DNA of 23,343 nt, taken from positions 1-23,343 of the IMG/VR virus record IMGVR_UViG_2541047945_000008; one strand, 5' to 3'. The stretch is from a virus (Duplodnaviria; Heunggongvirae; Uroviricota; Caudoviricetes). The first letter of the stretch is position 1; each line of letters begins with the position of its first letter. The position numbers and the translations under genes were made by a program. Of this stretch, positions 1,422 through 22,009 are shown piece by piece. The notes below the pieces were generated by a model. It worked only from the letters and a program-made list of their open reading frames with translations. It ran no database searches and was not told the DNA's origin.

Positions 1422-3893
1422 TTAAAAATCAGCCTGATTTGGGATCAGTTTTTGCCAGATAGCTGAAACGTATTTTGCCTGGTAACGGGCGTCATCAAGT
1501 GCATTATGGCGCTCACCTTCGAATGGAATAGCCGTTCTGGCATCGAAGTCTATGGCTTTCCCCAGCTCAACGATTGTGCGTACATCGCGATCGTTGTAGT
1601 AACGCCACGGGCAGGGGATCCCCTGCCGTTCGTATGAACGGCGCAAAATCGTGTTGTCGAAGTTGGCTCCATTTCCCCAAACCTGAACAAAAAATTCACC
1701 GGAGTTTTCGTCGATAAATTCCCGCAATTGTAACAGTGCATCATCTAACGGGATTTCATCGGTCATAATGGCAGATTGCGCTTCGCGTGATTGCTTAAGC
1801 CACCATTTAATGGTGTCCCGATCAATGACTCCGCCAGCAGTTTCCAGATCGATAGTCTTACTAAATTCCGGTCCCATATCTCCGGTTTGCGGATCGAAAA
1901 ATATTGCACCTATTGAGATGATCGGGGCATCAGGATTTTTTCCCATGGTTTCAAGGTCGATCATTAGATGGTCACACGTCCTGCTGGTGGATGTGATTTC
2001 TTGATGACCGTTCACCTTAATTGAGTGATCTGCCGTCTCGCCAGTTTCATTATCGCTATCGTGATGCTGATTGCCGCCAGTGTTCTCCTTGTGTGGATGT
2101 TCAGCGCCTTCCATTTCCTCCGGATCATCTTCCTGAACTTCAGGCTGATACTCTTCATCGAATGTTTCCTGGTATGTTGCGTCGCCCATTACCGCGCCAC
2201 AATCAGGGCAGTTGCCGCCGCCGGTCTGACCGCAGGCGGTGCAGACTTTTTCCACTTCCTGTTGCGCCACTGATTCAGGCTGTTTCGTTTCTGGCTCGTT
2301 TTGTAACGCATTTGGGCTGTTTTGTTCCGCTTTCTGGTCGTTCTGTTCCGTTTCTTGCTGGTTCTGGTTCACAGAATCGCGGGTCTGGTTCCCCTTAACC
2401 CATTTCGGATCATTCGGGTCGCTAATCCCTTCAACAAATTCACCACGTGATACTGCAAGCAGTTCATCGGCGTCAGGCTGGCTGATATTGGCTGCCTGCA
2501 TAATTTTGTTTACTTCGTCAGCGGTAACTTTTACTGACCCTGGTTGTGCGGTCGTGTCAGATGCACCAGTATTTTGTTGTGAACCTGAGTATGTACCGTT
2601 TTTGCGGGCGAAATATTCTTCTTTCGTGATTTCAGTAGCCCCAGCAGACAGCGCCTTATCCAGACCAGAAAGTTTGTTTGCGCGACCGTATTTTTCGCCA
2701 TCCTTGTCGGTGAAGAGGAAGTAGAACGGCCCCTCACGTTCTACAGATGGTTCGACTTCCACTTTGCATTCGGTTTTTTCGTTGTCCGGAATTGCCGTTT
2801 CCACTGCATCAGTTTCTGGTACTGGCGACGAGAGAGTATCAGTTGCGCTCTGATTTGTTCCTTCATCTTCAAACACGCCCTTTGTAGTCAGGTATTCAGT
2901 AATGTATTTGTTCAGTGCCACAGGGTCTTTGTGAATGTCGATCGGACGTTCACGGACAAGGCCAAAAATAGTCTGGCGGTCGTAGCGAAGGGCATCAGGC
3001 TGTTTGCGCATTGATGCCGAGATACGCTTCCAGTCTTCGCGGTCGTTGTCGATAACTTCATTTTTTGCCCAGCGATGGATGCTGCCGTCAATGTTTCCGG
3101 CATCCACATCACCAGGCCAGAGAGCGTAGGCCAGTTCGTCATCCAGTGTTTTCCATGTCTGCTTGTATTCGCGATGAATGGCAGCAATGACCGGGTTGAT
3201 TTTTCCTGTTGAATTTTCAGTGTGCTGTTGATTGGCTCTGGCGCGGGCGAGATCAACAACAGACGTGTATTTTCCGGCTTCCTTGCGTTCACCTTCGCGA
3301 CGTTTTTTCCAGATGCGCATCTCTGCCTGAATTTCGGGCCATTTGGCACCAGGCTTACATTTATGCTTAACCCACCCGATGGCATGCAGCTTAAGCTCCG
3401 GATACATGGCGTTAACTTCTGGCATTTTCATCAACGCTTCAACGATATGTCCGTCGAATGTTGCCATGTCTTCCTGCAACAGTTCCTGCGCGCTAATCAC
3501 CATATCAACGGTGATGTTTTCACATGTGTCGAACTTAACCATGACAGCGTTCTGTACTTCAGGGGCCAGCTTGTCAAAAGTGACGTTCATCGGATCTGAT
3601 TCAGTCTCAACCGGGACAAAGGAAGCAGACGCCTCATCCCAGCGGTTTTCCTGCATATATTCAGCATCCCAGGAATCTAGGGCAGGGCGGGGTATACCGG
3701 GTTTATCCTCGCAGACAAGAAATTTATAAGCGCAGTCCTGAGCAGCCGGATAATGTTCCAGGAATTGCCAGTGAAATTTTGCGCGGGCGCGACGTTCATC
3801 ACCGGCTTCAATGGCAGTGGCTACAGCGACTGCACCTTCTTCCTTTATTGCCTGTTCGTCCGGAATGGCGGCGCAAATAAAGACTTTACTCAT
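1422..3893 (-). CDS. Prophage exonuclease (exodeoxyribonuclease VIII-like), C-terminal DnaQ-type DEDDh 3'-5' exonuclease domain
   Basis: 823-aa ORF. C-terminus carries DEDDh motifs (MIDLETMG; GNGANFDNTIL; HNALDDARYQ). Central Cys cluster CTACGQTGGGNCPDCG and an acidic low-complexity linker. SD GAGGT 8 nt before the ATG at 3893. Confidence 0.75.
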   Translation of the reverse strand: MSKVFICAAIPDEQAIKEEGAVAVATAIEAGDERRARAKFHWQFLEHYPAAQDCAYKFLVCEDKPGIPRPALDSWDAEYMQENRWDEASASFVPVETESDPMNVTFDKLAPEVQNAVMVKFDTCENITVDMVISAQELLQEDMATFDGHIVEALMKMPEVNAMYPELKLHAIGWVKHKCKPGAKWPEIQAEMRIWKKRREGERKEAGKYTSVVDLARARANQQHTENSTGKINPVIAAIHREYKQTWKTLDDELAYALWPGDVDAGNIDGSIHRWAKNEVIDNDREDWKRISASMRKQPDALRYDRQTIFGLVRERPIDIHKDPVALNKYITEYLTTKGVFEDEGTNQSATDTLSSPVPETDAVETAIPDNEKTECKVEVEPSVEREGPFYFLFTDKDGEKYGRANKLSGLDKALSAGATEITKEEYFARKNGTYSGSQQNTGASDTTAQPGSVKVTADEVNKIMQAANISQPDADELLAVSRGEFVEGISDPNDPKWVKGNQTRDSVNQNQQETEQNDQKAEQNSPNALQNEPETKQPESVAQQEVEKVCTACGQTGGGNCPDCGAVMGDATYQETFDEEYQPEVQEDDPEEMEGAEHPHKENTGGNQHHDSDNETGETADHSIKVNGHQEITSTSRTCDHLMIDLETMGKNPDAPIISIGAIFFDPQTGDMGPEFSKTIDLETAGGVIDRDTIKWWLKQSREAQSAIMTDEIPLDDALLQLREFIDENSGEFFVQVWGNGANFDNTILRRSYERQGIPCPWRYYNDRDVRTIVELGKAIDFDARTAIPFEGERHNALDDARYQAKYVSAIWQKLIPNQADF

Positions 3894-3985: not shown

Positions 3986-4177
3986 TTAAAGACCTGCCGG
4001 GATTTCGTTATTATCCTGGTGAATAACTTTATCGACCGGGTAACAGTTACCGGGAATTTTCTGTTCGGTTGCTGCAGTCACACACTCCTGCATTGTCCTG
4101 TGAACACTGACTGCAATATCAACTGGCTCTCCGGAAACAAGAAAAACTGTCAGAACAAGTGCAAATGCTGTATTCAT
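3986..4177 (-). CDS. ydfD: YdfD-like small protein with hydrophobic N-terminus (64 aa)
   Basis: Protein MNTAFALVLTVFLVSGEPVD... recalled as YdfD of the Qin dicB operon. SD AAGGA 8 nt upstream; start overlaps the dicB stop. The track ORF was trimmed to this internal ATG. Confidence 0.55.
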   Translation of the reverse strand: MNTAFALVLTVFLVSGEPVDIAVSVHRTMQECVTAATEQKIPGNCYPVDKVIHQDNNEIPAGL

Positions 4178-4362
4178 TGTGCACATCCTTTTTGTATCGG
4201 ACGTAAACGGGCCAGCATTGAAAGAATGCATATTTTATTTAATAACTCCCGTTCGTGTTTTCTCTTGTTAATGGCATCTTCAGTAAATACAGGGTTACTG
4301 ATAGTGACACCAATTTCAAAACAACCTTCAGACGTATTAACGTTTGGTAATAACGTTTCCAT
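4174..4362 (-). CDS. dicB: Cell-division inhibitor DicB (62 aa)
   Basis: METLLPNVNTSEGCFEIGVTISNPVFTEDAINKRK... closely matches my recollection of E. coli DicB (62 aa). SD GAGGA 7 nt upstream. Lies just downstream of DicF. Confidence 0.8.
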   Translation of the reverse strand: METLLPNVNTSEGCFEIGVTISNPVFTEDAINKRKHERELLNKICILSMLARLRPIQKGCAQ

Positions 4363-4540: not shown

Positions 4541-4598
4541 AAAAAGGGCGGCAGAGCAGTCACGGAGTAAAACTGATACCGCCAAATGTCACCAGAAA
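4541..4598 (-). ncRNA. dicF: DicF small regulatory RNA
   Basis: The reverse complement reads tttctggtgacatttggcggtatcagttttactccgtgactgctctgccgcccttttt, matching my recollection of DicF (the ftsZ-targeting sRNA processed from the dicB operon transcript), ending in a T-run. Confidence 0.7.
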
Positions 4599-4933
4599 AT
4601 TGATAACAGAGGGCGTTGTAGCGGGGTTGTCACTTAAGCGTATGGTCAACCTGACAACCCGGTGCATTTTCTGGAGCAATGGAGGAAACCCCAGCCATAC
4701 TTACCGCCGCGCCATTTCGCGGAGTGCCACAACCGGAAGCGCACGGTCGAACTAAATTTAACGACACCGTACAGAGAGACCAATTTCGCCGTGCGCTTTC
4801 GCGTTATGCCCTGACTTTTCAGGGACATATCCTTTCAGTAAACTGTCAGTGCCGGATGCTCACCCGTGTCCGGCGCACGCACTCCACCTGACCAGTGGAG
4901 AACTCCTTAATTACCAACCCTCAGGAGGGTGAA

Positions 4934-5212
4934 ATGGATAAAAAGCAAATTGAGGCCCTGCAATCTATTATTGAAGAACAAGATGAAGCTATCAGGATTC
5001 TTTCATATCGCACTGATATGATACTAAATATGCTTTCTGCATTAACGGCTGCGCTTGGTGGTACAAAAACAAACGTATACCGCGAAGTTGTTATTCAACA
5101 GATAGATAAATTTGAAAAAACCATACCAGGTATTAATGCTCATCTTGCAGAACAAGAGAAAGACCATGCTCTTATGGCAATTTCTTCAGTAGCTCTCCCG
5201 AAAGTTGAGTAG
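4934..5212 (+). CDS. Hypothetical coiled-coil protein (92 aa), opposite in orientation to the surrounding operon
   Basis: ATG at 4934 with SD AGGAGGG 5-6 nt upstream. AT-rich. The track ORF begins at an upstream GTG; trimmed. No recognisable domain. Confidence 0.5.
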   Translation: MDKKQIEALQSIIEEQDEAIRILSYRTDMILNMLSALTAALGGTKTNVYREVVIQQIDKFEKTIPGINAHLAEQEKDHALMAISSVALPKVE

Positions 5213-5573
5213 TTTTAATTGTTGTTTTGAAATAATCACTGCTTTCACATTTGAGTGATTTCATGGCAATCCAAATGCGGGCCTCTGTGCCTGCATTTGG
5301 TTCCAGTTGCTGTAGACGTTTTGCGTCTTCCAAAAGTAAGGCGATAATGTGTTTCAGCTTCTCATCATTTGCTTGATTCTTGTTTTCAGGCGAATTCTGT
5401 CCGCCGAATAGGCGCTTCTCTTCATACAGACCTATAAAGGCACGACGCACGTTACCGGATATAGTATCGATGGTTTCCTTTTCTACAGTACTCAGGTCAA
5501 GAGTCGCCAGTTGAGAGCGAATCACATTCGCTGCCATTTCCTGGAATGGCATTGGTAAATCTTTAAATTCCAT
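5172..5573 (-). CDS. Hypothetical protein (133 aa) inserted between ydfC and dicF
   Basis: ORF with SD GAGG 8 nt upstream. No family recognised. As far as I recall, not part of the K-12 Qin dicB operon. Confidence 0.55.
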   Translation of the reverse strand: MEFKDLPMPFQEMAANVIRSQLATLDLSTVEKETIDTISGNVRRAFIGLYEEKRLFGGQNSPENKNQANDEKLKHIIALLLEDAKRLQQLEPNAGTEARIWIAMKSLKCESSDYFKTTIKTTQLSGELLKKLP

Positions 5574-5595
5574 TATTAGCCTCGTTGGTTAGCTA

Positions 5596-5814
5596 TTAAC
5601 GTGGGTATGTAACCATTCTGGCAATGCTTAATGCCGCTGCTTTTTCCAGCCTGGTGATATCCTGCTCCAGAGCGGACAGATTTTCAGCCTGCTTAGTCCT
5701 GGCTTCATTGGCCCATTTCAGATCCTGCACTGCATTAATTTTCTGGCGCATCCACTCATAAAGTTCATCATCGGTATAGTCTGGCGCGATGATGACGGGT
5801 TCTCGTTTCTGCAT
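5596..5814 (-). CDS. ydfC: YdfC-like small protein (72 aa)
   Basis: Size and position (third small gene of the ydfABC-dicF-dicB operon); SD GAGGA 6 nt upstream. Confidence 0.55.
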   Translation of the reverse strand: MQKREPVIIAPDYTDDELYEWMRQKINAVQDLKWANEARTKQAENLSALEQDITRLEKAAALSIARMVTYPR

Positions 5815-5973: not shown

Positions 5974-6129
5974 TCACTCACCTGAGTTTCTTTCCAGCCA
6001 GCGACGGGCACCATTTTCGGTTTTAAACGTTTTGCTTTTGGTATACGTCATCGCGGTGAATGTGCCGTCCTGGTTGGGAAACACGCCGTACACCAGAGAT
6101 TCGTTGTTGCCAAGCTCGATAGTATCCAT
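5974..6129 (-). CDS. ydfA: YdfA-like small protein (DUF1391-like, 51 aa)
   Basis: Hand-translated: MDTIELGNNESLVYGVFPNQDGTFTAMTYTKSKTFKTENGARRWLERNSGE. SD GAGGT upstream. First gene after a strong promoter. Confidence 0.55.
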   Translation of the reverse strand: MDTIELGNNESLVYGVFPNQDGTFTAMTYTKSKTFKTENGARRWLERNSGE

Positions 6130-6200
6130 GCTGACCTCATTTCCCCTTAACGCCGGGTGGCGGAACTAAAACCTACAGCGCCGTGCTGTTCTTGATAGAA

Positions 6201-6229
6201 ATATTAGTAACGCGGATATTTTAAGTCAA
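6201..6229 (-). promoter_or_regulatory. Sigma70-like promoter of the ydfA-dicB operon
   Basis: On the minus strand: TTGACT, 17-bp spacer, TAATAT. Located about 70-100 bp upstream of the ydfA-like start; a likely target for the adjacent DicA/RacR-like repressor. Confidence 0.5.
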
Positions 6230-6322
6230 CAGTATGGCGTATGATATTTTTGATTTGGTAACTATGTAAATGTTTTTTCAAGGGAAAAATATTAGTTATA
6301 CAGCTGATTTGCAGAAGTTATG

Positions 6323-6382: not shown

Positions 6383-6844
6383 CTACTGGTTACGTTTCTT
6401 TAGTGCCAGCATGTTCTCGAAGGCTTCCTCGTAGAGCTTGTTTAGTCCACGTAGCTGGTTAAGGAGTTTGGCTTTTTCTGACGCAGGTAGAATCTCGAAG
6501 AGGTTAAGTAACTCTGCCTGTTCTTCATTGACCAGCCTCCATCCTTTGCCTGAAAAGTTATCATCATAAGTATCTGATGATCTTACATAATTCATTAAGT
6601 CTTTAAGGTCTTCTCGAATGTCCTCTGGTTTTACCTTTAACAGAGCCGCAAATTTTAGCGCAGCGTCGGTATTTACCGGTATCTTGCCGTTCAGATACTG
6701 GCTAACGGTGCCTTGAGATTCGAATCCCAACAACTCAGCCGCCAGCTCTTGAGTCAGCTTCAGCTCTTTTTTTCTTGCATTCCATGCGGCTTTTAAATTC
6801 TTGCTCGCTTCTGGAGTTGCAATCACTTCGCGTGTTTTTTTCAT
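6383..6844 (-). CDS. Prophage repressor, DicA/RacR-like HTH-XRE protein (153 aa)
   Basis: N-terminal HTH (LTQELAAELLGFESQGTVSQYLNG). Divergent from a Cro-like gene across an AT-rich approx 100-bp region. Confidence 0.75.
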   Translation of the reverse strand: MKKTREVIATPEASKNLKAAWNARKKELKLTQELAAELLGFESQGTVSQYLNGKIPVNTDAALKFAALLKVKPEDIREDLKDLMNYVRSSDTYDDNFSGKGWRLVNEEQAELLNLFEILPASEKAKLLNQLRGLNKLYEEAFENMLALKKRNQ

Positions 6845-6945: not shown

Positions 6946-7227
6946 TTGGCTATGAACTTAAGAGACTATTTAAAAGAGAAACATATCACCCAGCTACAGT
7001 TTGGGAAGCTAACGGGTTTATCTCAGGTGCATGTAAGTCGAGTGCTGGGGGGCTATGAAAGATTCAGCCCTGAAAAAGCATTACGTGTTGCTGAAGTAAC
7101 GAATTTCGAGGTTACACCTCATGAACTCCGGCCTGATATTTACCCGAATCCAACCGACGGCTTACCTGTTGGATTCAAGGCTAACACACCAAATGCATCG
7201 GAGTTGATTCATGAAAATCAGGCATGA
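6946..7227 (+). CDS. Cro/YdaS-like HTH regulator (93 aa)
   Basis: HTH (ITQLQFGKLTGLSQVHVSRVLGG), divergent from the repressor; SD AAGG upstream. Confidence 0.7.
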   Translation: MAMNLRDYLKEKHITQLQFGKLTGLSQVHVSRVLGGYERFSPEKALRVAEVTNFEVTPHELRPDIYPNPTDGLPVGFKANTPNASELIHENQA

Positions 7228-7636
7228 GCACATCCGCATGGCGATGAATGCCTGGGCGCATCCGGACGGTGAAAAAGTTCCGGCAGCTGAAATAACCCGG
7301 GCTTATTTTGAGCTTGGTATGACGTTCCCGGAATTATATGACGACAGCCATCCGGAAGCCCTGGCTCGCAATACCCAGAAAATTTTCCGCTGGGTGGAGA
7401 AAGACACTCCTGATGCGGTTAAAAAAATTCAGGCGTTGTTACCAGCGATCGAAAAAGCAATGCCGCCTCTGCTGGTGGCCCGAATGCGCAGCCACAGTTC
7501 AGCTTATTTTCGGGAGCTGGTGGAGACGCGGGAACGACTGGTGAGAGACGCTGATGATTTTGTCGCAGTGGCGATCGCTGGTTTCAACCAGATGAATCGT
7601 GGTGGCCCTGCAGGAAATATTGTGGCTGTGCATTGA
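7211..7636 (+). CDS. YdaT-like protein (141 aa)
   Basis: Overlaps the end of the Cro-like gene. N-terminus MKIRHEHI... and size match my recollection of Rac YdaT. Confidence 0.6.
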   Translation: MKIRHEHIRMAMNAWAHPDGEKVPAAEITRAYFELGMTFPELYDDSHPEALARNTQKIFRWVEKDTPDAVKKIQALLPAIEKAMPPLLVARMRSHSSAYFRELVETRERLVRDADDFVAVAIAGFNQMNRGGPAGNIVAVH

Positions 7637-11287: not shown

Positions 11288-11524
11288 TTTTATGGATCAC
11301 CTTTCTGATTGATTTCATATTGGCGAGGTGACGTGAGTTAAGTAGAATGGCTGCGGGTGCTTGAGGCTATCTGTCTCAGGCATGAACACTGAAAGGCAGA
11401 TAGAGAAAAGCCCCAGTTAACATTTCGCGTCCTGCAAGACGCTTAACATTAATCTGAGGCCCAATCTATGTCTCACAAATGTAGGTTAGCCTCTTACGTG
11501 CCGAAAGGCAAGGGGAAGCAGGCT

Positions 11525-11680
11525 ATGAAGCAGCAAAAGGCGATGTTAATCGCCCTGATCGTCATCTGTTTAACCGTCATTGTGACGGCACTGGTAACGA
11601 GGAAAGACCTCTGCGAGGTACGAATCCGAACCGGCCAGACGGAGGTCGCTGTCTTCACAGCTTACGAACCTGAGGAGTAA
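11525..11680 (+). CDS. hokD: Hok/Gef-family membrane toxin (51 aa), HokD/RelF-like
   Basis: MKQQKAMLIALIVICLTVIVTALVTRKDLCEVRIRTGQTEVAVFTAYEPEE matches my recollection of HokD/RelF. A structured leader lies upstream and a terminator downstream. Confidence 0.8.
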   Translation: MKQQKAMLIALIVICLTVIVTALVTRKDLCEVRIRTGQTEVAVFTAYEPEE

Positions 11681-18486: not shown

Positions 18487-18562
18487 GGCCCTTTAGCTCA
18501 GTGGTGAGAGCGAGCGACTCATAATCGCCAGGTCGCTGGTTCAAATCCAGCAAGGGCCACCA
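18487..18562 (+). tRNA. tRNA with CAU anticodon (Ile2-lysidine or Met type)
   Basis: Hand-folded cloverleaf: acceptor GGCCCTT/AAGGGCC, D-arm AGCTCAGTGGTGAGAGC, anticodon loop CTCATAA, T-arm GGTTCAAATCC, 3' CCA. Confidence 0.8.
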
Positions 18563-18569
18563 TCACATA

Positions 18570-18646
18570 CCGCCATTAGCTCATCAGGAAAGAGCGCCAG
18601 CCTTCGAAGCTGGTTGCGCGGAGTTCGGGTCCCCGAAGGCGGTCCA
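18570..18646 (+). tRNA. tRNA-Arg-like (anticodon UCG), slightly degenerate
   Basis: D-arm GCTC...GAGC, anticodon stem CCAGC/GCTGG with loop CTTCGAA, T-loop TTCGGGT, 3' CCA. One mismatch each in the acceptor and T stems. Confidence 0.55.
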
Positions 18647-18659
18647 TTATCTGTATCCT

Positions 18660-18736
18660 GCGTTGTTAGCTCAGCCGGACAGAGCAATTGCCTTCTAAGC
18701 AATCGGTCACTGGTTCGAATCCAGTACAACGCGCCA
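18660..18736 (+). tRNA. tRNA-Arg (anticodon UCU)
   Basis: Perfect acceptor stem GCGTTGT/ACAACGC, D-arm TAGCTCAGCCGGACAGAGC, anticodon loop CTTCTAA, T-arm GGTTCGAATCC, discriminator G, CCA. Confidence 0.85.
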
Positions 18737-18782: not shown

Positions 18783-18996
18783 TCACAATTCAGGCGGTTG
18801 ACTGTTGTCTGGTTTGCGGGGAGTTTGTTAAAAGAAACTGGCATGGTGAATCCCCCTGTGCGGAGGGGCAATCAGCGAGTAGGTATATGGGATAATCGCG
18901 GATTCAGGTGCTGGTACTGAATTCACCGGGAGGCACCCGGCACCATGCAATGGCACATAGCGCCACTCTCCAGCCCCTCTCCGGAGGGGCTTTTCT
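18783..18996 (+). repeat. Repeat unit A: structured element ending in a terminator (candidate sRNA gene)
   Basis: Shares blocks with unit B: tcacaattcag, ttgac, tttgttaaaa, catggtgaatcccc, a cccc/gggg hairpin, caccgggaggcacccggcaccatg and terminator gcccctc-tccg-gaggggc plus T-run. Confidence 0.5.
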
Positions 18997-19250
18997 GTGC
19001 CGGATACATCACAGTTTCTGGAACCTTAGGTACTACAGTATCAGTCAGGGTGCTATATTTTCAGATGTGATGAAAGCCTGTCAGCAGGCAGGGCGTATCG
19101 GAAATGACCCAGTAGAGAAAACGTTGACTCAGATACCGGTGCTGAGTTACCGGGAAACCGGCATCACATGACCGCTATCCTTCCAGGCCCATCCGCTCCG
19201 GTGGGCCTTTTTACTGCAGAAAACAGGTTCCCCGTTAAATGCTATGTTGC

Positions 19251-19483
19251 TCACAATTCAGTAAGTTGACAGTTGCCTGTCAGACTGGGCATTTGTTAAA
19301 AAAATTTCGCATGGTGAATCCCCCTGAGCGGAGGGGCGACTGGTGACGGTATAATCTCTGATTATCAAAACGAGAATGACGCGGGTTTAGTGGCACCGGG
19401 CTGAACTCACCGGGAGGCACCCGGCACCATGTGCATGATGATACAGATACGCGGCTTTAGCCCCTCTCCGGAGGGGCTTTCTT
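19251..19483 (+). repeat. Repeat unit B: second copy of the structured element
   Basis: Same conserved blocks and the same terminator hairpin (agcccctctccggaggggctttctt) as unit A; internal segments diverge. Confidence 0.5.
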
Positions 19484-19711
19484 ATGGACAAAAAAAGCCC
19501 GCGCTGGGAGACGCGGGCGGCAAGGAATAAACAATAAAACGTGAAGTAATATTTCAGCTGGCGAATAATACCCCATAGTAATCACTCTGCGCAACTGCGC
19601 GGTCTTTTTCGAATTGCGGGCTGTAGTCTCCCTTCTGCCATTGTCCTGTAACTTCCGGACTTCAGCCTGCTCCTTATCTGACTCACAACATTATCCCGCC
19701 CGGGAGGATTC

Positions 19712-19906: not shown

Positions 19907-20233
19907 ATGACTAAAAATACTCGTTTTTCCCCTGAAGTCCGTCAACGGGCAGTCCGTATGGTTCTGGAAAGTCAGGGCGAATATGACTCACAATGGGCGA
20001 CAATTTGTTCCATTGCTCCAAAGATTGGCTGTACGCCGGAGACTCTGCGTGTCTGGGTTCGCCAGCATGAGCGGGATACCGGGGGCGGTGATGGAGGGCT
20101 CACCACCGCTGAACGTCAGCGTCTGAAAGAGCTGGAGCGTGAAAATCGTGAACTGCGCCGCAGTAACGATATCCTTCGCCAGGCTTCCGCTTATTTTGCG
20201 AAGGCGGAGTTCGACCGCCTCTGGAAAAAATGA
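19907..20233 (+). CDS. IS629 transposase OrfA (HTH, 108 aa)
   Basis: [57 protein letters not shown]... with a leucine-zipper-like C-terminus. Confidence 0.85.
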
Positions 20234-21120
20234 TGCCACTGCTGGATAAGCTGCGTGAGCAGTACGGGGTCGGACCGCTATGCAGCGAACTGCATATTGC
20301 CCCGTCAACGTATTACCACTGTCAGCAACAGCGACATCATCCGGATAAACGCAGTGCCCGTGCGCAGCGCGATGACTGGCTGAAGAAAGAGATACAGCGC
20401 GTATACGATGAAAATCACAAGGTATACGGTGTGCGTAAAGTCTGGCGTCAGTTGTTACGGGAAGGTATCAGAGTGGCCAGATGCACTGTGGCACGTCTCA
20501 TGGCGGTTATGGGACTTGCCGGTGTTCTCCGGGGTAAAAAGGTCCGTACGACCATCAGCCGGAAAGCCGTTGCCGCAGGCGACCGCGTAAACCGTCAGTT
20601 CGTGGCAGAACGACCTGACCAGCTGTGGGTGGCTGATTTTACTTACGTCAGCACATGGCAGGGCTTCGTCTATGTGGCGTTCATCATTGATGTGTTTGCC
20701 GGATACATTGTGGGGTGGCGGGTCTCATCGTCCATGGAGACGACATTCGTGCTGGATGCACTGGAGCAGGCGTTATGGGCCCGTCGACCGTCCGGCACGG
20801 TCCATCACAGTGATAAAGGTTCTCAGTATGTATCGCTGGCCTACACACAGCGGCTTAAGGAAGCCGGATTACTGGCATCAACAGGAAGTACAGGCGACTC
20901 GTATGACAACGCGATGGCGGAGAGCATCAATGGTCTTTACAAAGCGGAGGTAATACACCGTAAGAGCTGGAAAAACCGTGCAGAAGTGGAACTGGCCACA
21001 CTCACGTGGGTGGACTGGTATAACAATCGACGATTGCTGGAAAGGCTGGGCCATACTCCTCCGGCAGAAGCAGAAAAAGCTTATTATGCTTCCATCGGAA
21101 ACGATGATCTGGCAGCCTGA
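20230..21120 (+). CDS. IS629 transposase OrfB (DDE integrase-like catalytic domain)
   Basis: 296-aa ORF overlapping OrfA (ATGA); rve-type DDE domain (WVADFTYV ... HHSDKGSQY ... DNAMAES). Confidence 0.85.
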
Positions 21121-21425: not shown

Positions 21426-22009
21426 TGGCATTCAGAATGAGTGAACAAGCACGGACCATAAAAATTTATAATCTGCTGGCCGGAACTAATGAATTTATTG
21501 GTGAAGGTGACGCATATATTCCGCCTCATACAGGTCTGCCAGCAAACAGTACCGATATTGCACCACCAGATATTCCTGCTGGCTTTGTGGCTGTTTTCAA
21601 CAGTGATGAGGCATCGTGGCATCTCGTTGAAGACCATCGGGGGAAAACGGTTTATGACGTAGCGTCAGGGGACGAGTTATTTATTTCTGAACTCGGTCCG
21701 TTACCGGAAAATGTTACCTGGTTATCGCCGGAAGGGGAGTTTCAGAAGTGGAACGGCACAGCCTGGGTGAAGGATACGGAAGCAGAAAAACTGTTCCGGA
21801 TCCGGGAGGCGGAAGAAACAAAAAACAAACTGATGCAGGTAGCCAGTGAGCATATTGCGCCGCTTCAGGATGCTGCAGATCTGGAAATTGCAACGGAGGA
21901 AGAAACCTCATTGCTGGAAGCCTGGAAAAAGTATCGGGTGTTGCTGAACCGTGTTGATACATCAACTGCACCTGATATTGAGTGGCCTACGAACCCTGTC
22001 AGGGAGTAA
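21425..22009 (+). CDS. tfa: Tail fibre assembly protein (Tfa), 194 aa
   Basis: Start overlaps the tail-fibre stop (TAATG). Conserved Tfa C-terminus ([32 protein letters not shown]). Confidence 0.8.

Follow-up and report, generated by a model that had tools for sequence, protein, structure and literature searches.

Small genes that run against the early-left operon are known from several lambdoid phages and prophages. In phage lambda, sieB (34482..35036, plus strand) abuts N (35037..35438, minus strand) end to end; in the Rac prophage, ydaF converges on sieB with a 4-nt overlap; and in the e14 prophage of Escherichia coli K-12, the early-left genes after the repressor begin with ymfJ, which converges on ymfI and overlaps it by 63 nt. 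The sieB product is a membrane protein. The same convergent layout is found in gp20/gp19 of the Aeromonas phage pAEv1818. Here we analyse a convergent, overlapping pair of genes, encoding proteins of 133 and 92 aa, that lies inside the dicB operon of a Caudoviricetes prophage (IMG/VR record IMGVR_UViG_2541047945_000008, positions 1 to 23,343; this whole stretch of 23,343 nt is called the window). The window is 100% identical to a lambdoid prophage of E. coli ML35. We conclude that the pair occupies a multi-allelic slot in which at least six alternative convergent pairs are found with one conserved adaptor.

Both K-12 pairs, ymfI-ymfJ and sieB-ydaF, are listed as convergent excludons in K-12 RNA-seq (PMC12288877). 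For ymfJ/ymfI we found expression data only: late SOS brings strong induction of ymfJ (log2 fold change 4.8), with YmfJ seen at the protein level (PMC11002266), and the e14 induction iModulon contains ymfJ, ymfH, xisE and intE but not ymfI (PMC12132413). In P22, sieB is under the control of an antisense RNA (PMC7067206, PMC12197685); the sas antisense RNA at sieB is cited in PMC7067206.

Against this background, the RefSeq hypothetical proteins, the existing PHROGs, the YmfJ family and the layout of lambda, Rac and e14 are already known. What is modestly new is the multi-allelic slot with its one adaptor, the presence of that adaptor, empty, in K-12 Qin, and the placing of ymfJ/ymfI in the same system.

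One allele of a polymorphic slot in the dicB operon

The open reading frame (ORF) listing and the RefSeq annotation of the identical ML35 locus both place the dicB operon on the minus strand of the window, in the order ydfA, ydfB, ydfC, the 133-aa gene, DicF, dicB and a DUF1482/ydfD-like gene (Table 1). The window has all canonical parts of a Qin-type dicBF operon in order, at 92-96% identity to common alleles: ydfA-ydfB-ydfC, DicF with its terminator, dicB and ydfD are co-directional, and the repressor is divergent. It differs from Qin in two respects. In K-12 Qin, ydfC runs directly into the ~330-nt DicF leader, whereas the window carries a 656-bp cassette between the two, its boundaries set by pairwise alignment with K-12 Qin; and the repressor and antirepressor genes of the window are of another type (a 153-aa helix-turn-helix (HTH) protein; YdaS/YdaT-like).

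A sequence-only reading of the window had described two extra genes between ydfC and DicF that K-12 Qin lacks, placed them from 4934 to 5573, which is start codon to start codon of the pair, and given the operon order with the 92-aa gene on the opposite strand. Alignment, ORF listing and RefSeq bear this out. The overlap that it put at about 40 nt is 41 nt, the insert that it called AT-rich has 40.4% G+C against 47.7-51.2% in the flanks, and the strong Shine-Dalgarno (SD) sequence that it saw on the plus strand is an AGGAGG five bases before the ATG. It was also right that the two genes are not standard members of dicB operons: the full segment is present at ≥98.6% identity in 124 of 5426 complete E. 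coli genomes, including enteropathogenic E. coli (EPEC) E2348/69 (98.9%), against 4764 of the 5426 with dicB-operon sequence. In about 770 other genomes the match is confined to the first ~160 nt of the 133-aa gene, and those inspected carry other alleles at the same site.

The extra genes do not represent a unique event. A 28-nt core of the conserved element by the plus-strand gene pulled 120 IMG/VR copies of the site, which we classified by their downstream content. Most copies (84/120) are empty like K-12, and the other 36/120 are occupied by at least six different plus-strand ORFs. Their products start with MDKKQIE (92 aa, the window allele), MSTENDE/MGFDVNE (91 aa), MTSKNVN (73 aa), MNTIKTT (74 aa), MTQEEK (63-69 aa) and MLKSTLI (77 aa). 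Every one of these cargo ORFs sits behind one common CTCAGGAGGGTGAA-ATG adaptor and, with few exceptions (one frameshifted copy), converges on and overlaps a minus-strand gene by 11-41 nt. Among the 5426 complete genomes, the cargo genes of alleles A, B, C and E number 124, 198, 88 and 66. We conclude that the 92-aa gene is an exchangeable accessory cargo, one of at least five unrelated small-protein families at the site.

That the segment is extra relative to K-12 stands; that it was inserted is not established, because in the empty K-12 allele the promoter-like hexamers and double hairpin found before the plus-strand gene elsewhere are still in place (window 4816-4905; K-12 Qin, L002, ~2440-2530). 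The same promoter-like sequence and double hairpin also precede the plus-strand gene in Salmonella contexts without dicF. K-12 may thus be the deleted form, and its empty allele the product of a deletion. If active, the K-12 hexamers and hairpin would drive antisense transcription into ydfC-ydfA.

Two coding genes

Judged by their substitution patterns, both genes are real coding genes under purifying selection. Salmonella prophages carry a 93-aa homologue of the 92-aa protein, 72% identical in alignment, whose gene converges with a 41-nt overlap on a stand-alone 71-aa gene equivalent to the C-terminal half of the 133-aa protein; the length of the overlap is kept at both Salmonella loci L006 and L136. 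The ratio of nonsynonymous to synonymous substitution rates (dN/dS, or omega; Nei-Gojobori) is 0.245 for the 92-aa gene against its Salmonella homologue and 0.187 for the C-terminal half of the 133-aa gene against the 71-aa gene. In a six-frame control over the 183 nt free of other ORFs, the annotated frame is the sole stop-free one and has the lowest omega (0.17).

These values bear on whether the 92-aa ORF is a misannotated chance ORF, as might be suspected of a short, AT-rich frame with no assigned function that lies antisense to an operon transcript. Its omega of 0.17-0.245, its well-placed AGGAGG and its conservation in Salmonella, at 44-74% identity and with different partners, all speak against chance. 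With dN/dS and the six-frame control together, this reading is effectively refuted and almost certainly wrong.

The 92-aa protein is a member of phrog_18692, here called cargo family I. Its homologues in a profile search come from Escherichia and Salmonella only and are all hypothetical, and AlphaFold2 (AF2), run on the single sequence, predicts a two-helix hairpin at low confidence. The most frequent alternative allele encodes a 91-aa cargo protein with 28% identity to the 92-aa protein. Families I and II (the latter comprising the 73/74-aa cargoes) are unrelated (hhalign probability 0.4%), and the cargo types belong to different PHROGs. A single diverged family for all cargoes was considered and dropped: A and B are related at the 28% identity given above, families I and II are not.

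Searches of Pfam, NCBIfam and PADLOC with both proteins and with six alternative-allele proteins gave nothing past threshold; in PHROGs, both proteins and the cargo types match families of unknown function only; and a PDB sequence search gave no match below E = 0.6. No toxin-antitoxin (TA) domain was found in the 92-aa protein, which has a single sub-threshold RelB-like match (E = 0.014, 15.6 bits against a cut-off of 50).

A mosaic minus-strand gene and free reassortment

The 133-aa gene, with GAGG (5583-5580) as its SD, is a mosaic of a helical N-domain, a YmfJ N-terminal domain and a disordered tail. The protein belongs to phrog_1363 and has separate PHROG matches on residues 1-62 and 69-117. 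HMMER, run exhaustively over 1.8 billion representatives, returned 109 clusters matching it; in ~35 of these the N-domain forms the N-terminus of proteins with unrelated C-termini, and in ~70 the YmfJ domain does likewise. Residues ~69-110 match the N-terminal domain of YmfJ (ELKHVIALLLEDAKRLQQxEPNAGTEARI; ~42 aa). The underlying DNA is 78% identical to K-12 e14 ymfJ, the YmfJ translation agrees, and matches to the Cronobacter phage phiES15 and the Aeromonas phage pAEv1818 show this DNA conserved at 79-85%. AF2, run with an 81-sequence alignment, models helical hairpins at residues 8-57 (predicted local distance difference test, pLDDT, ~90) and 66-108 (pLDDT ~75), joined by a disordered linker (58-64) and followed by a disordered tail (111-133). 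Foldseek comparison of this model with the PDB and BFVD gave no significant match except an uncharacterised protein of a Shiga toxin (Stx) phage, which shares a single hairpin.

By this homology and by its position, the 133-aa gene can be assigned to the uncharacterised YmfJ family: it lies on the early-left strand, downstream of the immunity repressor, and converges on a small opposite-strand gene. The YmfJ-type convergent layout is also present in e14, Salmonella, pAEv1818 and phiES15. In phiES15 (L011), an unannotated 95-aa ORF at 2075-2362 (plus strand) is a homologue of pAEv1818 gp19 and is convergent with gp10.

In one IMG/VR contig (L075), an in-frame fusion joins ydfC to a YmfJ-domain gene (136-aa product), and in other alleles an alternative start, MRLTM, stands before the N-domain or before the YmfJ domain. 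The minus side, too, thus has a conserved initiation adaptor, GAGGCTAA(T/C)AATG.

The two sides of the pair combine freely. The YmfJ domain is found opposite cargo families I, II and III and opposite YmfI-like cargoes, and families I and II also occur with a second domain (EKYFLDLMDIIDKGFGLL). The partner of family I can carry a YmfJ domain, a 'Y' domain or an HTH, the HTH gene lying in another Salmonella element and likewise overlapping by 41 nt; the tails opposite family II are unrelated. Either gene of the pair can occur without the other, and cargo-less alleles are common among the ~770 genomes that match the N-domain only. Degenerate alleles in which the minus-strand gene is kept and the cargo lost are seen in O157:H7 Z869 (L005, 2286-2660) and 95-3322 (L003, 2544-2903).

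This reassortment weighs on the suggestion of the sequence-only reading that the pair may be a toxin/immunity module. In such a pair, a harmful 133-aa protein made with the dicBF operon would be neutralised by the 92-aa protein and the 3' overlap would add antisense control. Several features recall such a module: the genes are tightly linked and overlap by the same 41 nt in E. coli and Salmonella; the conserved N-domain, variable C-terminus and variable neighbour of the minus-strand gene resemble polymorphic toxin loci; the operon already encodes the toxic products DicF and DicB; and the 92-aa protein has the faint RelB-like match given above. A cognate pair is nevertheless disfavoured because the modules reassort freely, with the YmfJ domain paired with four unrelated cargo families and families I and II with unrelated minus-strand parts. 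The tail, which covaries with the cargo, is disordered in the AF2 model and lacks conservation among alleles that share a cargo family; each gene is also found alone, no TA or defence family passes threshold, and a convergent layout is atypical of type II TA systems. We regard a toxin/antidote pair as improbable, and the 92-aa protein as unlikely to be a partner of the 133-aa protein.

A putative expression adaptor

A double hairpin precedes every cargo type and is also present in the empty alleles. As plus-strand RNA it folds with -38.4 kcal/mol (z = -3.44), whereas the minus strand is no better than shuffled sequence (z = -0.26), and three invariant G-U pairs are possible on the plus strand only. 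Hairpin 2 has two compensatory pairs in the diverged Salmonella copy L136, which is weak support since it comes from a single lineage, and some natural hairpin 2 variants among the IMG/VR copies would suit the minus strand better. The element may alternatively be an antitermination site of the nut or put type, or a site of processing, that works on the operon strand. A known RNA family was considered for the element and dropped, there being no Rfam match even at E ≤ 10. The SD lies within a conserved CTCAGGAGGGTGAAATG adaptor common to all cargo types, and the structured 5' untranslated region (UTR) and SD accompany the plus-strand gene into contexts with unrelated upstream DNA.

A putative promoter of the 92-aa gene stands just upstream, with transcription predicted to start at ~4851, at the foot of hairpin 1. 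Both hexamers hold their position in three diverged contexts with differing spacer, and a TGn extended -10 is found in L019, L006 and L136. The DicF leader is antisense to this putative promoter and to the 5' UTR of the 92-aa gene. On the operon strand the leader has a hairpin at 4808-4823 (minus strand CCCTGAAAAGTCAGGG), followed by a GNRA-type hairpin at 4793-4804 (ACGCGAAAGCGC); the first ten bases of the former match lambda boxB (GCCCTGAAAAAGGGC) less one A. This boxB-like hairpin, a possible nut-like or RNase processing site, overlaps the putative -35 of the plus-strand promoter.

Such an adaptor could also serve an RNA rather than a protein: a long plus-strand antisense RNA would damp leakage from the toxic dicBF operon (the 133-aa gene and ydfC-ydfA), with the protein secondary. 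The persistence of the promoter-like sequence and hairpins in the empty K-12 allele, from which antisense RNA would run into ydfC, agrees with this, as does the position of the first plus-strand terminator-like site, inside ydfC (5619-5636); the sas RNA at P22 sieB, cited in PMC7067206, is a precedent. An RNA-only role would not require the five unrelated protein families maintained at the site, and purifying selection on the reading frame of the 92-aa ORF, which has a strong, conserved SD, is clear. We consider RNA as the main product to be quite improbable.

A gene in the sieB slot

By its layout and its partly shared upstream sequence, the plus-strand gene sits in what may be called the sieB slot of lambdoid early-left operons. 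A TGTGCC..CCAC..GGTGG block is common to the upstream regions of lambda sieB, Rac sieB, ymfI and the phage genes named above, and the upstream region of the window gene shares with Rac the adjacent CGCTTTCGCGTTATGCC block. Like sieB of lambda, P22 and Rac, the gene lies antisense in the PL operon, at the same position and in the same orientation, and is convergent with the preceding early gene. The products differ: the 92-aa protein is predicted to be a soluble-looking helical hairpin, whereas SieB has 162 aa in Rac and 184 aa in lambda, and no Pfam, NCBIfam, PADLOC or PHROG match places the 92-aa protein in the SieB family. The CCAC...GGTGG hairpin found upstream of lambda and Rac sieB also occurs with ymfI-type cargoes (L134, 1960-2012; L012, 2030-2080; L011, 2020-2075), where an extended -10, TGGTATGCT or TGGTATACT, lies just after it, ~35-45 nt before the start codon.

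The e14 pair is alike in that an early-left gene downstream of the repressor overlaps a convergent small plus-strand gene. It differs from the window pair in three ways: the window protein has an additional N-terminal helical domain and another tail, its family I partner (phrog_18692) has no relationship to YmfI, and the window pair comes after ydfABC and before DicF, whereas the e14 pair directly follows the repressor. Morons offer a further comparison. As with morons, prophages that are otherwise near-identical may have or lack the segment, its G+C is below that of the flanks, its joints are conserved and it comes with several cargoes. No terminator of its own is predicted, and its promoter candidate is weak, though conserved in position. 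Unlike a moron, the cargo overlaps a resident gene whose C-terminus changes at each swap.

Expression of the pair can be considered from its geometry. The coding regions overlap by 41 nt, a consensus scan finds no terminator-like site between the two genes, and the operon transcript to DicF crosses the plus-strand gene. Because no terminator separates the genes and the dicBF transcript is antisense across the whole 92-aa gene, mutually exclusive expression would be expected. The convergent geometry thus makes antisense or mutually exclusive expression of the pair likely, as the sequence-only reading had proposed for antisense regulation; for the window this is by analogy with the ymfI-ymfJ and sieB-ydaF excludons. 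The SOS induction of ymfJ and the e14 iModulon, which includes ymfJ but leaves out ymfI, also fit such expression. The exclusion role that the same reading offered is likewise a positional analogy with sieB.

On balance we favour, as a somewhat probable reading, that the segment is one allele of a polymorphic cassette in the sieB slot, carrying a cargo for the lysogen that is expressed as an excludon with the 133-aa gene. In the repressed prophage, the adaptor would drive expression of its cargo gene. The 133-aa gene would be an early gene, switched on once the DicA-like repressor is removed; derepression would bring expression of the 133-aa gene together with DicF and DicB, and collision and RNA duplexes arising from dicBF transcription would shut the cargo gene off. 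Recombination would exchange cargo between flanks that are conserved, of which one is the hairpin/SD adaptor and the other is conserved domain DNA with a GAGGCTAATAATG adaptor, and the disordered tail of the 133-aa protein would be its reading frame running on into the neighbouring cassette. By analogy with sieB, a benefit to the lysogen is the most likely role for the cargo, such as phage exclusion or defence, or some other modulation of the host.

Another account is that the two accessory genes are uncoupled, the overlap being compaction at a recombination joint and the plus-strand gene being expressed in lytic growth, perhaps by read-through or from a late transcript, and not in the lysogen. 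Lambdoid phages typically have their mosaic joints at gene borders, neither a convincing plus-strand promoter nor a terminator is predicted, and ymfI goes up rather than down late in SOS. Set against this, the promoter-like hexamer pair keeps its position in four contexts although the spacer has diverged, the structured 5' UTR and SD travel with the plus-strand gene into unrelated upstream DNA, ymfI is missing from the e14 induction iModulon, and the convergent orientation is held in every allele and in lambda, Rac and e14. We think uncoupled genes unlikely, if with some real chance of being right.

Several observations weigh against the excludon cassette that we favour. The promoter candidate is the best plus-strand match to a position weight matrix (PWM), but its score of 9.49 is not significant alone (the median best score of random chunks is 8.78), and a consensus scan finds no sigma-70 promoter on the plus strand. 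The hairpin, being retained in empty alleles, may instead serve the dicBF transcript. The cargo is dispensable, as many genomes keep the minus-strand gene and have lost the plus-strand gene. A simple excludon predicts that ymfI should fall late in SOS, when it rises modestly (log2 fold change ~2; PMC11002266), and expression of the window allele is judged from its K-12 analogues. An exclusion or defence role is drawn from position, since the 92-aa protein has no SieB similarity, no long hydrophobic segment and no PADLOC match.

We also put forward, tentatively and as a rather doubtful extension, that the slot, which lies between ydfC (or the repressor) and the DicF/kil region, is an unrecognised lambdoid hotspot in which a fixed adaptor of promoter, double hairpin and SD serves interchangeable, small helical, lysogen-expressed anti-phage, exclusion or host-modulating proteins that are silenced by dicBF on induction. 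If so, the 92-aa protein would be a new small exclusion or defence effector, and if the sieB analogy holds, the slot offers a compact set of candidates, at least five unrelated families of 63-95 aa that prophages would deploy in lysogeny. Beyond this, ymfJ/ymfI of K-12 are one instance of a modular architecture that is widespread, the dicBF leader of K-12 Qin has kept an expression adaptor that looks orphaned, and wild dicBF operons often carry an antisense-embedded gene that could affect DicF and DicB expression. Taken alone, the window is an ordinary case of lambdoid mosaicism.

Features of the locus

Table 1. Features of the dicB-operon locus, in positions of the window; residues are those of the 133-aa protein.
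Feature	Position	Strand	Basis or remark
variable cassette absent from K-12 Qin	4920..5575		656 bp; two genes and SD of plus-strand gene
133-aa gene	5573..5172	-	RefSeq hypothetical protein
helical N-domain	residues 1-57, nt 5403-5573	-	PHROG, HMMER, AF2
YmfJ-type domain	residues ~66-110, nt 5244-5378	-	PHROG, HMMER, AF2, DNA match to ymfJ
disordered tail	residues 111-133	-	AF2; section overlapping plus-strand gene
92-aa gene	4934..5212	+	RefSeq coding sequence, hypothetical protein
3'-3' overlap of the two coding regions	5172..5212		41 nt
putative promoter of 92-aa gene	4816..4844	+	-35 TTTTCA (4816-4821), 17-nt spacer, -10 TAAACT (4839-4844)
double hairpin	4849..4900	+	hairpin 1 4849-4876, hairpin 2 4882-4900; directly 5' of plus-strand gene
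SD AGGAGG of 92-aa gene	4923..4928	+	within the adaptor common to all cargo types
ydfA	6129..5974	-	ORF listing, RefSeq
ydfC	5814..5596	-	upstream neighbour; stop codon 22 nt before 133-aa gene
DicF small RNA (sRNA)	4597..4546	-	Rfam RF00039, 77 bits; same operon, downstream, behind structured leader
dicB	4362..4174	-	Pfam DicB, E = 4e-38

The operon promoter is predicted at 6229-6201 (TTGACT-17-TAATAT), within a divergent promoter region at ~6200-6270. The immunity region (6383-6844 and 6946-7636) is unlike K-12 dicA/dicC, with its 153-aa HTH repressor and YdaS/YdaT-type genes; the dicBF operon here is thus under a different immunity type.

Elsewhere in the window, an Rfam match to the sok antitoxin (11355-11530, 120 bits) implies a hok/sok-type module within the prophage. 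Three prophage tRNA genes (18487-18733) are followed by two copies of the STnc100 sRNA (18812-19489; 165 and 136 bits). Further Rfam matches are to the ALIL pseudoknot (RF01497, cis-regulatory; 20188-20304) and to the IS009 RNA (21768-21966), which we take to indicate that the late region of the prophage contains an insertion sequence.

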